Part shown: positions 23,879 to 60,122 of the stretch, in pieces
Layout: each line of letters begins with the position of its first letter
How positions within the stretch are numbered: position 1 is the first letter of the stretch
The notes under the pieces: model-generated
Database searches by the model: none
What the model was told of the DNA's origin: nothing
What the model saw: only the letters and a program-made list of their open reading frames with translations
Assembly (NCBI RefSeq): GCF_003334785.1
Contig: NZ_QOWV01000008.1
Length of the DNA: 64,000 nucleotides
Reading direction: 5' to 3' (one strand)
From: Escherichia coli
Lineage (GTDB): Bacteria > Pseudomonadota > Gammaproteobacteria > Enterobacterales > Enterobacteriaceae
Made by a program: the position numbers and the translations under genes

Positions 23879-24225
23879 AATAAATAGCTGACTTATGGAT
23901 GTGCTGGGGATTCTATGTATTTAGCACCGGGTTTGCCATTACTTTTCCTTTTTTTGACTTAATTAGCCTCTGTTTGAGCTGATCTGCCGCTAGATCTTCA
24001 TTTTTTTTGTATTTTTATGCGATTCATTGAATTTCAGCCAGGATTGCAGCTTTACATCGACAATATCTGGATTCTCGAGTATGCAAAATTTTATCTCTAT
24101 GATTTTTATAATTAAAACATATTTTGTGTATAAAAATCATTCGGGTCGGATTGCTGCGAAAGAAATGATACACTAGCGCGTCAAAGTAAGTGCGTTATCA
24201 GTATTCGGGTAGCTGTTGAGCCTGG

Positions 24226-24237
24226 GGCGGTAGCGTG
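24226..24237 (+). promoter_or_regulatory. ops element (RfaH recruitment site) in JUMPstart leader of the waaQ operon
   Basis: Exact GGCGGTAGCGTG in the long leader, about 85 bp upstream of waaQ. Confidence 0.7.
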
Positions 24238-55344: not shown

Positions 55345-55932
55345 TTACTTTTGAAAGGCTTTTTTTAAGCTGATTTTGGAAATCAGCTCAGTCAGTGAAA
55401 GGACCATTGTTGATCGCACAGCCTGTTGATAGCGCTGAATTTGCATTGCATACAAACTGGAGTCTGCTGGTTCAAACTGTGGCGGCGGTGGTAACGCCGC
55501 CACGCAGTGCAGTTCACCAAAGGGTCCAAGGATTTCGTCGTCGGTAAAGGCGTACTCGTTGCCGTCGTGATTTAGCTCTTCACGCAATGCCATCAGCAGT
55601 TCCGCATCTTCGTATTCCTGGCGGTTAATGACGCCCAACCCGTAAATGAGTTTTAAACGCACAGAAAGATCGCCCAGCGGACCATCGCCGTCGAGTAACG
55701 GTTCTACAGCATACTTCACCGCGTAATCGTCTTTGCGGAATACCTGAAGCACCAGAAGATTTACCGCCTCGGTCAGGAGCTCGACGGCGGTGATCAGAAA
55801 GCTTCGCACGGTTTTGCCAGCATTCAGACGCTCAAGCACACGGTTTTCAAAGGCCTGGGTTTGTTCCATTGTTGCCTGCATATCTGACAATCTGTTATTC
55901 GGGCGCAGGGTGTCCTGCGCCTGGTCCACCAT
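55345..55932 (-). CDS. mtlR: Mannitol operon repressor
   Basis: 195 aa [25 protein letters not shown]... Confidence 0.9.
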   Translation of the reverse strand: MVDQAQDTLRPNNRLSDMQATMEQTQAFENRVLERLNAGKTVRSFLITAVELLTEAVNLLVLQVFRKDDYAVKYAVEPLLDGDGPLGDLSVRLKLIYGLGVINRQEYEDAELLMALREELNHDGNEYAFTDDEILGPFGELHCVAALPPPPQFEPADSSLYAMQIQRYQQAVRSTMVLSLTELISKISLKKAFQK

Positions 55933-57080
55933 TATTGCATTGCTTTATAAGCGGTTACCGCCTCGGATACAACCTCGCTGTTGGCATCAAGACCGGAAAT
56001 CTGTGCCAGCGCCGCCTGCGGACCTTTGTCAGCGATCAGTGCTGCCAGTTCCTGAGCCTGCGGATCATCTTCACTGCGGAAGTGCATTGCAGCGGCAATA
56101 CCTTCAATCAGGTTTTTATGTGGCAGACCATATTCCAGCGTACCGAGCAGTGGCTTGATCAGACGGTCGCCAGCACTCAGTTTACGCAGTGGCTGACGGC
56201 CTACGCGCTCTACATCATCTTTCAGATACGGGTTCTCAAAACGGCCGAGAATTTTCTGGATGTACGCCGCATGCTTGTCAGCGTCAAAGCCGTAGCGCTT
56301 GATCAATACTGCACCACTTTCTTCCATCGCACCTTTTACCACCGCGCGGATTTTCTCGTCGAGAATCGCGTCACGAATGGTCTGATGACCGGCCAGTTTT
56401 CCGAGGTACGCGGTTATAGCATGACCCGTGTTCAGGGTGAAGAGTTTACGTTCGACAAATGCCATCAGGTTGTCGGTTAACTCCATGCCTGGGATGTTCG
56501 ACAGTGCGCCTTTGAACTGCGTTTTATCGACAATCCATTCGCTGAAGGTTTCTACCGTCACTTCCAGCGGATCGTTAGTTGCCGAAGCCGAAGGCGGTAC
56601 GATGCGGTCAACGGCGGAATCGACAAAGCCAACGTGTTCTTCTACCCACGCTTTGGCGTCTTCCGGCAGGGCGTTCATCACATGGCCTTTCAGCTGCGTG
56701 GTACCGCGTACCATGTTTTCACAGGCGATGATGTTCAGCGGGGATTCATTACCTTGTTCTTTACGTTTCACCAGCCCTTTGGCGATTGCCGGAGCAATAC
56801 GTTCCAGCACAACCGGGCCAACGGCGGTAGTGACTAAATCAACCTGAGCAATCAGATCAACGACATCATCACCAATGCTGCTGACAGCATTGACGCCGGA
56901 AACGGTATCTACCTGCTCGGTTTCACCAACCACATGTACCTGATAGCTATGACGGGCATTCAGGGCATCAAGTACCACCTGATTGACATCGGCAAACGTC
57001 AGTTGGATACCCGCGTCTGCCAGCAGTTTACCGATAAAGCCACGACCGATATTACCTGCGCCAAAATGTAATGCTTTCAT
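55932..57080 (-). CDS. mtlD: Mannitol-1-phosphate 5-dehydrogenase
   Basis: 382 aa from [15 protein letters not shown]; the 488-aa track ORF reads through the upstream repeat region. Confidence 0.95.
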
Positions 57081-57084
57081 AGTA

Positions 57085-57309
57085 TTAACCTTCATCAATG
57101 TTTTTACCCGAGAGGGCTGGGGTGAGGCTTTTCCCTCACCCAAACCCTCTCCGTGAGGAGAGGGGCAGCGCCGGATGCGGCGTAAGCGCCTTATCCGGCC
57201 TACAAGAACGTGCAAATTCAACAAATTGTGATGCATCCTGTAGGCCTGATAAGCGTAGCGCATCAGGCAATTAACCCCACCTTCTCCATGTGGAGAGGGT
57301 GGGATTGGA
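57085..57309. repeat. BIME-type repeat cluster between mtlA and mtlD
   Basis: Two opposed REP units (GCCGGATGCGGCGTAAGCGCCTTATCCGGCCTAC and TGTAGGCCTGATAAGCGTAGCGCATCAGGC) flanked by GGGTGAGG/CCCTCACCC and CCCTCTCC/GGAGAGGG hairpin modules. Confidence 0.75.
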
Positions 57310-59223
57310 TTACTTACGACCTGCCAGCAGTTCCAGCACTTCATCCACGCTGGTGGTGTGTGCCAGACGCTCGATGACGGACTCATCATCCAGTGCATTG
57401 GTCAGGCTGGTGATAACCTGAATGTGCTCGTTGTTACGGGCAGCAATACCAATCACCAGACGGGCAATGTCATCTTCTTCTTCACCGAAGCGCACGCCTT
57501 CCGGGTACTGGCAGAACACGACGCCCGTTTTCAGTACGCGATCTTTCGCTTCAACCGTACCGTGTGGCACCGCGATAGACTCACCCAGATAAGTCGGGGT
57601 CAGTTTTTCACGATCCAGCATCGCCTGAACGTATTCCGGCTCAACGTAACCGCCTTTCACCAGCTGCTCGCCAGCAAAACGAATCGCTTCTTCTTTGGTT
57701 GCCGCTTTGCGACCGAGGAAGATGTTCTCCGCGCCTAGCTTGAACAGGTTAGCACTGGAATCGTCAAAGCTGTCTTTCAGGCTGTCTTTTACTTTCTCTT
57801 CGTTTGCCGTGTGGCGTTGGGCAGCAACCAGACGTTCGGTCAGGCTGGTGTACAGGCCGCTGTCGAGGAAGTTGGTCAGCGAAATATGCTGTGCCTGCGG
57901 AACCTGGCGCATAGCGCGTTCGGTCAGGTCACGGTGAGTGATGACGAGGTCCACATCTGGCGGCAGGTTGTTGATCGCGCTGTTAGTAACAGAAATCTGC
58001 GACAGACCTGCATCCTGAATTTTCTTACGCAGAACGCCTGCGCCCATCGCACTGGAACCCATACCGGCGTCACAGGCAACGATGATTTTACGTACGTGGC
58101 TCAGGTCGTTAGTCACATCGCCAGCAGACAGCGGAGATGCGCCTTTAGACTCAGCTTTCATGTCCTGCATACGACGAGTTGCTGCTTCAATATCATCTTC
58201 TTCTTTCACTTTGCTGGTTTTCAGCAAAATAGCAGAGACAACGAAGGAGACAGCCATCGCCGCACACACACCCGCGATGTTAGCGAAGTAAGCACCTTTT
58301 GGTGTCATCGCCAGTACAGCAAGGATAGAACCCGGAGATGCCGGAGAAACCAGACCACCGCCCAGGATAGTCAGCGTGAACACGCCAGTCATACCGCCGA
58401 GGATGACTGCGAGGATCAGACGCGGATTCATCAGCACATACGGGAAGTAGATTTCGTGGATACCCCCCAGGAAGTGGATGATTGCCGCACCGCCCGCAGA
58501 CTGTTTAGCGCTACCACGACCAAAGAACATGTACGCCAGCAGCACGCCCATACCTGGACCTGGGTTAGCTTCAATCAGGAAGAAGATTGATTTACCCAGT
58601 TCATGGGACTGCTGAATACCCAGCGGCGAGAAGATACCGTGGTTAATGGCGTTGTTGAGGAACAGGATTTTCGCCGGTTCAACAAAGATAGACGCCAGCG
58701 GCAGCATGTCATGGACAACCATGAAGTTAACGCCCGCAGCCAGCATTTTGGACAGGGCTTCAACAATCGGGCCAATGCCGAGGAATGCCAGAATAGCGAG
58801 GATCATCCCGATGATGCCTGCGGAGAAGTTATTCACCAGCATCTCAAAACCGGATTTGATCTTACCGTCTACCCAGCGGTCGAAGTGCTTAATGCACCAG
58901 CCGCCCAGCGGACCTGCAATCATAGAACCGAGGAACATCGGCATGTCTGCGCCGACGATAACGCCCATGGTGGTGATGGCACCGACTACGCCGCCACGTT
59001 CGCCGCCTACCAGCTTACCACCGGTATAACCGATCAGCAGCGGCAGGAGATAAGTGATCATCGGCCCGACCAGCTTCGCCAGCGTCTCGTTCGGTAACCA
59101 CCCTGTTGGAATAAATAACGCGGTGATGATACCCCACGCGATAAACGCGCCGATATTTGGCATCACCATGTTGCTGAGGAAACGACCAAAGCTTTGCACT
59201 TTGATCTTAATATCGGATGACAT
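57310..59223 (-). CDS. mtlA: PTS mannitol-specific EIICBA
   Basis: 637 aa [32 protein letters not shown]... Confidence 0.95.
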
Positions 59224-59363
59224 AAAAACACCCCTTCTTATGTTTGCTGTCGCGCAGGCTGGAAGCCCGAGGTTTTTTGTTAATGTGGCGGCAGAGGTAG
59301 CCGGACCTTGTAGATACTGCGAAATCTGGCACTGAATCGGTTAACTGTCCAGTCGACGGCCTT

Positions 59364-59546
59364 TTGTGTGATATCAATCACATAAATATAGGGGGTAGAG
59401 AGGTAATTGACGTGACGTTCATCACAAAACGCTTGTGTAAAAAAGCAACAAGGCGGCGATTTTCGCTAAAAATGGCATTTAAATGTGAGTAGTGTCACAT
59501 TTTTGTTTTGATGGTTTGTTGAATCTTTGTGATCTGAATCACAAGA
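59364..59546. promoter_or_regulatory. Array of CRP binding sites in the mtlA promoter
   Basis: Three perfect TGTGA-N6-TCACA sites at 59367-59382, 59484-59499 and 59528-59543, plus near-perfect CGTGA-N6-TCACA at 59411-59426. Confidence 0.65.
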
Positions 59547-59759
59547 TATTTTCTTACGGCGTTCACCTGATGTGATCTACAGCATGTTATGCCTTCGTCA
59601 TACAATCGTTATGTAACTAAGCAACTCATCACCTCTAAAAATTATTCTTTGGTGTTATGGCGAGAATCGCGAACCCGGATTATTGTCAAAATATCAGCCT
59701 GACTCCCTTCTGGCTGCCAGCCCAAAAACAACACTGATAAACGTGAATCCGAGGCAGAT

Positions 59760-60122
59760 ATGTTTCTAAACTATTTCGCGTTGGGAGTGCTGATCTTCGT
59801 CTTTCTGGTGATTTTTTATGGAATCATCGCGATACATGACATCCCTTATCTGATTGCCAAAAAGCGCAACCATCCCCATGCCGACGCTATTCATACGGCG
59901 GGCTGGGTGAGCCTGTTTACTCTGCATGTTATCTGGCCGTTTCTGTGGATCTGGGCGACGCTCTATCAACCGGAGCGTGGCTGGGGTATGCAGTCACATG
60001 TTGCGTCGCAGGAGAAAGCGACTGACCCGGAAATCGCCGCACTTTCTGACCGAATTTCCCGGCTGGAGCATCAACTCGCCGCCGAGAAAAAGACTGACTA
60101 TTCCACGTTCCCGGAGATCTAA
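59760..60122 (+). CDS. yibI: Inner membrane protein YibI
   Basis: 120 aa [29 protein letters not shown]... Confidence 0.8.

Follow-up and report, generated by a model that had tools for sequence, protein, structure and literature searches.

A dense array of CRP sites upstream of mtlA in Escherichia coli corresponds to the known mtl operator and keeps its spacing across Enterobacterales

What purpose is served by four perfect or near-perfect CRP sites that are packed closely together in front of one operon, and is it the density of these sites or their arrangement that matters for regulation? The locus that raises this question lies in a 64-kb stretch of Escherichia coli DNA (64,000 nucleotides of contig NZ_QOWV01000008.1, assembly GCF_003334785.1), in the following called the window. 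A first-pass annotation made from the letters of the window had described a dense array of CRP sites upstream of mtlA. This location was confirmed by the mtlA open reading frame (57310-59223, minus strand), with which the RefSeq annotation agrees, and the sites are found between 151 and 312 bp upstream of the start codon of mtlA. Open reading frames and RefSeq annotation likewise confirm the operon mtlA-mtlD-mtlR downstream of the array, and in RefSeq the intergenic region (59224-59759, 536 bp) is bordered by mtlA, mtlD and mtlR in one direction and by yibI and yibH in the other (Table 1). An RNA element at the position of the array was considered and rejected, as the region matches neither an RNA family nor a tRNA: Rfam gave no match in the region, either at the gathering threshold on the whole window or at E-values up to 1 on 59150-59800, and a tRNA scan found none in the region. 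The only gathering-level Rfam match of the window is a JUMPstart RNA element (RF01707, 53.1 bits) at 24199-24237 on the plus strand. Within the operon, the spacer between mtlA and mtlD (57081-57309, 229 bp) contains REP-type palindromes (GCCGGATAAGGCG...GCATCCGGC), as in K-12; at the corresponding locus of an O157:H7 strain (L001) the gap between both genes comprises only 94 bp.

The number of sites was determined by counting mismatches against the 10-base core and comparing the counts with shuffled and Markov-simulated sequences, which was preferred because a matrix made from these very sites would be circular. An exact pattern search revealed three TGTGA-N6-TCACA cores in the 64-kb window, located at 59367-59382 (TGTGATATCAATCACA), 59484-59499 (TGTGAGTAGTGTCACA) and 59528-59543 (TGTGATCTGAATCACA), while 0.08 are expected from shuffles of the window and none of 100 shuffles reached three or more. 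A search allowing mismatches added the sole one-mismatch core of the window at 59411-59426 (CGTGACGTTCATCACA), and all four cores with at most one mismatch are packed into 177 bp. First-order Markov simulations of the window (n=200) yielded a mean of 1.8 such sites per 64 kb, and the biggest cluster within 200 bp consisted of two sites and occurred once only. Hence, two properties reported by the first-pass annotation, i.e., three perfect sites and one near-perfect site within about 180 bp and an unusually high density of these sites, were both borne out by the counts. At the level of two mismatches, 18 cores were found across the window vs. 25.5 expected; since two-mismatch sites are not enriched over the whole window, the CRP-core signal is specific for this locus.

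The mtl control region has been reported to contain five CRP sites, according to the footprinting study of Ramseier and Saier (1995; Microbiology 141:1901) in the form in which this study is cited in PMC13421365 (Lee et al. 2026; Nucleic Acids Res) and PMC5320558. The centres of CRP1 to CRP5, given relative to a start mapped by S1 analysis (Table 1), result in published spacings of 43, 44, 73, and 44 bp (PMC13421365). In the window, the centres are located at 59374.5, 59418.5, 59491.5, 59535.5, and 59578.5, corresponding to spacings of 44, 73, 44, and 43 bp, which are the published ones read from CRP5 to CRP1. As the spacings 44/73/44 equal those published, the four sites of the window are CRP5, CRP4, CRP3, and CRP2. 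Spacings of 43–46 bp are thereby found for three pairs, CRP4-CRP5 and CRP2-CRP3 at 44 bp and CRP1-CRP2 at 43 bp. The published core scores, 7/10 for CRP1 and 10/10 for both CRP2 and CRP3 (PMC13421365), agree as well, so that the proposed match with the multi-CRP architecture of the mtl promoter stands up to comparison with the mapped sites. The same is true for the placement of the sites within the promoter: the start had already been S1-mapped, and the distal sites CRP2 and CRP4 are reported to be essential. The interval originally given for the array (59364-59546) covers CRP2 to CRP5 correctly but omits the fifth published site, CRP1. While the spacings were measured in the window, the absolute numbering of the sites depends on the published start (PMC13421365).

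Table 1. Features of the mtl control region and of the adjacent genes in the window. Positions are those of the window; centres are published distances from the S1-mapped start (PMC13421365); core scores refer to the palindromic core within the 22-bp site.
Feature	Position	Strand	Centre	Core score	Description
CRP5	59367..59382	-	-58.5	10/10	Perfect core (TGTGATTGATATCACA on gene strand); promoter-proximal, class-I-like
CRP4	59411..59426	-	-102.5	9/10	TGTGATGAACGTCACG on gene strand; 44 bp from CRP5
CRP3	59484..59499	-	-175.5	10/10	Perfect core; 73 bp from CRP4, 44 bp from CRP2
CRP2	59528..59543	-	-219.5	10/10	Perfect core
CRP1	59571..59586	-	-262.5	7/10	Weak core, TGTGATCTACAGCATG (CATGCTGTAGATCACA on gene strand); 43 bp from CRP2
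ACAAA block	59515..59519	-			8 nt after CRP2 core, in CRP2-CRP3 spacer
Implied transcription start	59316	-			Published S1 start transferred via site numbering; uncertain by 1-2 nt
Inferred -35, TGGACA	59346..59351	-			From implied start, 17-nt spacer; moderately conserved in Enterobacterales
Inferred -10, CAGATT	59323..59328	-			3/6 matches to TATAAT; conserved as 'ccagatt'
Cra (FruR)-like operator, TGAATCGGTTAA	59333..59344	+			Between inferred -35 and -10; moderately conserved
mtlA	57310..59223	-			Mannitol PTS permease EIICBA, 637 aa; first gene of the operon; ORF and RefSeq annotation of identical locus
mtlD	55932..57080	-			Mannitol-1-phosphate 5-dehydrogenase, 382 aa; translation inside listed ORF and annotation
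mtlR	55345..55932	-			Repressor without DNA-binding domain, 195 aa; ORF
yibI	59760-60122	+			Divergent gene across intergenic region; starts 181 bp beyond CRP1 centre

The intergenic region is 100% identical to that of many E. coli chromosomes and was found in 5403 of 5426 complete E. coli genomes, and the segment 59124-59859 is identical to K-12 MG1655. The region thus consists of the same DNA as the K-12 mtlADR operator, with identical spacings (43/44/73/44), core scores and flanking genes. Judged by its sequence, the array is, base for base, the known mtl operator that has already been described. It therefore represents the rediscovery of a regulatory region of textbook level, which teaches nothing new on E. 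coli, and its value is that of a useful positive control, as reading of the sequence alone had found the only real multi-CRP architecture in 64 kb.

Variation within E. coli spares the half-sites. An alignment of seven diverse E. coli sequences contains 23 SNPs and no indels in the region, and none of the SNPs affects the 50 half-site bases. Eight of the 23 SNPs affect the N6 centres, which comprise 30 bases and for which about 1.3 would be expected, a difference that is only suggestive given this small sample of related sequences; the N6 centres in question are 59372-59377, 59416-59421, 59489-59494, and 59576-59581. In E. coli GPEC1054 (NZ_CM142793.1, locus L008), an IS21-family element (istA/istB, ISSso4-like) is inserted after the position that corresponds to 59559 of the window, i.e., between CRP2 and CRP1, by which CRP1 and yibI are cut off and CRP2 to CRP5 stay intact beside mtlA. 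An insertion sparing CRP2 to CRP5 fits the reported dispensability of CRP1.

Counted from the implied transcription start, the mtlA leader would comprise 93 nt (59316 to 59224), and from the same start the elements listed in Table 1 can be assigned as the putative -35 and -10 of the mtlA promoter. The weak -10 would fit an activator-dependent promoter. It also accounts for the result of a combined scan of 59100-59900 for consensus sigma-70 promoters and terminators, which did not detect the mtlA promoter, as is expected when a promoter depends on an activator; the output consisted of one plus-strand match at chance level and of a hairpin that overlaps the -35. A classical activating position is held by CRP5 alone; its centre deviates by about 3 bp from -61.5, the canonical position of class I. 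The motif TGAATCGGTTAA at 59333-59344 resembles TGAAWCGWTTCA, the consensus of Cra. A Cra site is described to exist in the mtl promoter (PMC13421365), and the Cra-like motif is probably this site. A second promoter under the control of CRP3 or CRP2 was also considered and rejected: inspection by eye revealed as the only -10-like hexamer GAAAAT at 59460-59465, which is placed 38.5 bp from the CRP3 centre in an unconserved region.

How these sites act was studied experimentally by others. A crp mutant shows no mtlA expression and no growth on mannitol, and chromosomal replacement of CRP2, CRP4 or CRP5 abolishes mtl expression, while replacement of CRP3 causes a slight drop and CRP1 is dispensable and poorly occupied (PMC13421365). 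CRP binding was analyzed in electrophoretic mobility shift assays (EMSA) with a fragment from -287 to -33 and with sub-fragments thereof (PMC13421365). MtlR does not possess a DNA-binding domain, and it causes a supershift only if two CRP dimers are bound 43–46 bp apart, with an optimum of 44–45 bp (PMC13421365). It binds neither the CRP3-CRP4 pair with its spacing of 73 bp nor the malK array, and respacing of either to 44 bp creates binding; moreover, an arbitrary sequence in the spacer between the CRP sites supports MtlR binding (PMC13421365). The residues R167 and L178 of MtlR are the reported CRP contacts, and the variants R167E and L178A lose binding as well as repression and are derepressed in vivo; the MtlR-CRP-DNA complex is represented by an AlphaFold3 model and not by a solved structure (PMC13421365). 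The translation of mtlR in the window was checked and contains both residues, R167 and L178. Derepression is achieved by dephosphorylated EII-Mtl, which traps MtlR on the membrane, and for activation from distant upstream positions (to -219.5) phase-dependent looping or anti-silencing were put forward by the authors as hypotheses only (PMC13421365).

Transferred to the window, these data suggest the following sequence of events. At high cAMP, CRP dimers would occupy CRP5, CRP4, CRP3, and CRP2, leaving the weak CRP1 mostly empty. For CRP5 at -58.5, a direct recruitment of RNA polymerase is probable, and the upstream sites, of which CRP2 and CRP4 are required and CRP3 contributes, probably act via the architecture of the DNA. 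The sites form two 44-bp pairs, CRP2-CRP3 and CRP4-CRP5, separated by 73 bp or about seven helical turns, for which we infer a role in phasing. In the absence of mannitol, an MtlR dimer would bridge two CRP dimers positioned 43–46 bp apart and thereby cover those CRP surfaces that contact the polymerase, so that the same sites would serve both activation and repression. With mannitol, MtlR would be kept at the membrane by dephosphorylated EII-Mtl and the operon would be switched on; with glucose, dephosphorylated HPr would release MtlR from EII-Mtl and repression would return. Based on sites, spacing, operator identity and cross-species constraint, all of which were computed, and on CRP binding, MtlR bridging and mutant phenotypes taken from the literature, the region is almost certainly the mtlADR operator-promoter, which belongs to the CRP-dependent promoters of class III and has five CRP sites, on pairs of which MtlR docks. 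The density of the sites, which the first-pass annotation had singled out, is a feature of a real array, but the decisive functional property is the 44-bp spacing. In this way, a repressor lacking a DNA-binding domain can find a single genomic target via the spacing of the sites of an activator.

To analyze how widely this arrangement is conserved, we searched 100,044 species, each represented by one genome, for pairs of perfect cores with a spacing of 43–46 bp; the matches listed are a sample. The comparison of the operator is thereby widened from the four other species of the published work to about 60 with paired sites beside mtlA among the matches listed. Of 120 listed loci, 70 are upstream regions of mtlA: in 63 a mtlA homologue starts within about 450 bp, and seven further loci, cut at the edge of the locus, are similar to mtl upstream regions in blastn. 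Of the 63 listed mtlA loci, 60 have a pair spaced by 44 bp and three a pair spaced by 43 bp, while the other 50 listed loci, nearly all from phyla without mtl system apart from a few unclassified gammaproteobacterial metagenome bins, show spacings spread over 43–46 bp. In three Tannerella metagenome bins (L053, L054, L055), the pattern recurs every 23 bp; these loci consist of a short tandem repeat in which TGTGA...TCACA occurs by coincidence, unrelated to CRP or mtl.

The Enterobacterales among the matches listed amount to 47 sequences including the window, with the genera Escherichia, Enterobacter, Klebsiella, Pantoea, Pectobacterium, Brenneria, Samsonia, Serratia, Budvicia, and others. Their layout is 44/73/44, with a middle gap of 73 bp in 45 sequences, 72 bp in one and 74 bp in one, and CRP5 is located 144 to 272 bp from the start codon in this set. 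Because the search required only one pair, the conservation of the second pair and of the 73-bp gap is an unselected result. Selection by the search pattern does contribute to CRP2 and CRP3 being perfect in different species, and the finding that CRP2 is perfect in 47 of 47 of the listed Enterobacterales sequences is partly such an effect; CRP5 carries at most one mismatch in 46 of the 47. For the 39 non-redundant Enterobacterales sequences among the matches listed, the information content per position is 1.88 bits in the half-sites compared to 0.49 bits in the N6 centres, 0.61 bits in the spacers and 0.38 bits in the core of CRP1. The half-sites and their spacing thus appear to be under strong constraint across species. 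CRP1 does not show this constraint on its half-sites (0.38 bits), and at least six mismatches are present at its position in 21 of the 46 scorable sequences among the matches listed.

Outside the Enterobacterales, the listed matches contain simpler arrangements. In Pasteurellaceae, the region upstream of mtlA mostly carries three perfect cores near the start codon with spacings of 40 and 44 bp, or of 41 and 43 bp in one case (three-core loci L022, L057, L075, L076, L103, L104, L114, L119), and L077, L116, and L120 possess one pair only, spaced by 43 or 44 bp. The 40-bp spacing is outside the range of 43–46 bp reported to recruit MtlR. Among the listed Orbaceae, i.e., Gilliamella and relatives (L011, L041, L045, L056, L072, L106), a single perfect pair at 44 bp is found. 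Furthermore, Enterobacter and close relatives among the matches listed (L013, L020, L027, L028, L059, L068, L070, L107, L111, L113) possess an extra CRP-like site with two mismatches, with its centre 49 bp downstream of CRP5, in the region of the inferred -10; this site, which E. coli lacks, may be due to chance.

These comparisons allow to judge other explanations for the array. That the cluster is a product of chance or consists of non-functional palindromes such as remnants of repeats has a probability close to nil. It could draw on the general frequency of weak CRP-like matches, and even these, the 18 cores with at most two mismatches, are below the 25.5 expected; against it stand the three exact cores where 0.08 are expected, a packing of four cores, none with more than one mismatch, into 200 bp that the simulations never approached, half-sites that are near invariant across the families of the Enterobacterales while the surrounding sequence diverges, a region in which neither an Rfam family nor a tRNA was found, and the binding data that have been published. 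If the sites are functional, they might mainly serve the divergent yibIH, encoding a DUF3302 protein and an HlyD-family protein, with the link to mtlA being secondary. The gene yibI does start at 59760 on the opposite strand of the same intergenic region, 181 bp past the CRP1 centre, and a sharing of CRP sites between divergent promoters is known from malEp-malKp. However, of the 49 species loci that include 1200 bp or more upstream of mtlA, only 11 contain a yibI homologue there, yet the CRP sites are kept beside mtlA in all 49. Moreover, the site nearest to yibI, CRP1, is the weakest and least conserved, the IS21 insertion in GPEC1054 parts yibI from CRP2 to CRP5, which stay with mtlA, and mutation of sites in the chromosome abolishes mtl expression (PMC13421365). 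The array follows mtlA and not yibI; yibI as the main target was rejected on synteny, and we regard this explanation as very improbable.

A different objection accepts the sites and their link to mtlA and concerns MtlR. According to the view held before 2026, the array only activates, in the additive or synergistic manner of class III promoters, and the 44-bp spacing is irrelevant to MtlR, which acts via a separate DNA-binding partner. A study from 2017 observed no interaction of MtlR and CRP in the absence of DNA and proposed such a DNA-binding partner, and the structural model of MtlR, CRP, and DNA is a prediction only. Nevertheless, the supershift in EMSA is seen only at 43–46 bp and can be conferred on the malK pair by respacing it to 44 bp, and the loss of binding by R167E or L178A matches the derepression in vivo (PMC13421365). 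In addition, the 44-bp spacing is kept at perfect pairs beside mtlA in Enterobacterales, Pasteurellaceae, and Orbaceae among the matches listed. Given these data, an array restricted to activation is hardly to be expected, and docking of MtlR on pairs of CRP dimers is preferred.

Docking of a repressor on CRP has a counterpart in CytR. The CRP sites of deoP2 have a spacing of about 53 bp compared to 44 bp at mtl. Both CytR, e.g., at deoP2, and MtlR dock as repressors on tandem CRP dimers and exert anti-activation, as compared in PMC13421365. They differ in that CytR, which is sandwiched by two CRP dimers on the DNA, is a member of the LacI family and binds its own operator between the CRP sites, whereas MtlR without DNA-binding domain is guided by the CRP spacing only. 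Similarities also exist to malEp-malKp, where, as at mtl, CRP sites are densely arrayed between divergent genes and activation is of the class III type; the mal region contains three to four adjacent CRP sites. In contrast to the mtl pairs, neighbouring mal sites have a distance of 34 bp, MtlR being recruited to them only after respacing to 44 bp (PMC13421365), and the mal array works together with MalT for both divergent promoters while the mtl array follows mtlA only. For the essential CRP2 at -219.5, a precedent named by the authors is pap, where activation from about -215 depends on the helical phase (PMC13421365). However, pap uses a single remote CRP site together with Lrp, PapI, and H-NS, and mtl is not known to use such partners.

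Two conserved features go beyond the current model, the ACAAA block in the spacer of CRP2 and CRP3 and the phasing over 73 bp. ACAAA is present at the identical position in 46 of the 47 Enterobacterales sequences among the matches listed, the exception being ATAAA, while the rest of the 28-nt spacer is unconserved; it is absent from the spacers of Pasteurellaceae and Orbaceae among the matches listed. The gap between the centres of CRP4 and CRP3 (59419-59491) is kept within 1 bp in 47 of 47 of these Enterobacterales sequences while the length of the leader varies by more than 120 bp, indicating that indels are tolerated outside the array and not inside. In the published EMSAs, MtlR bound without requiring ACAAA or the 73-bp gap (PMC13421365), and since an arbitrary spacer sequence supports this binding, ACAAA is outside the published model. 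Compared by eye with consensus sequences, ACAAA did not fit convincingly as a site for Cra, Fis or IHF, a ToxR-like direct repeat, a docking site for the alpha-CTD or a divergent -35. We tentatively consider that both features mark an additional partner or a fixed higher-order structure of CRP and DNA, i.e., a loop or a wrap, an idea that we rate as possible though rather doubtful. If true, such a partner or fixed geometry would be of moderate interest, and it would explain activation by the essential site at -219.5, which is left open by PMC13421365.

Further conserved blocks are located outside the cores. The motif AAAATAT.T directly upstream of CRP2 (59544-59552) is one of them, and another is formed upstream of CRP4 by a T-run followed by ACAC at about 59427-59440. 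Finally, a C5/G5 block at 59390-59396, 7–13 nt upstream of CRP5, has the sequence ACCCCCT in Enterobacteriaceae and reads as the complement, AGGGGT/TAGGGT, in Serratia, Pectobacterium, and Brenneria.
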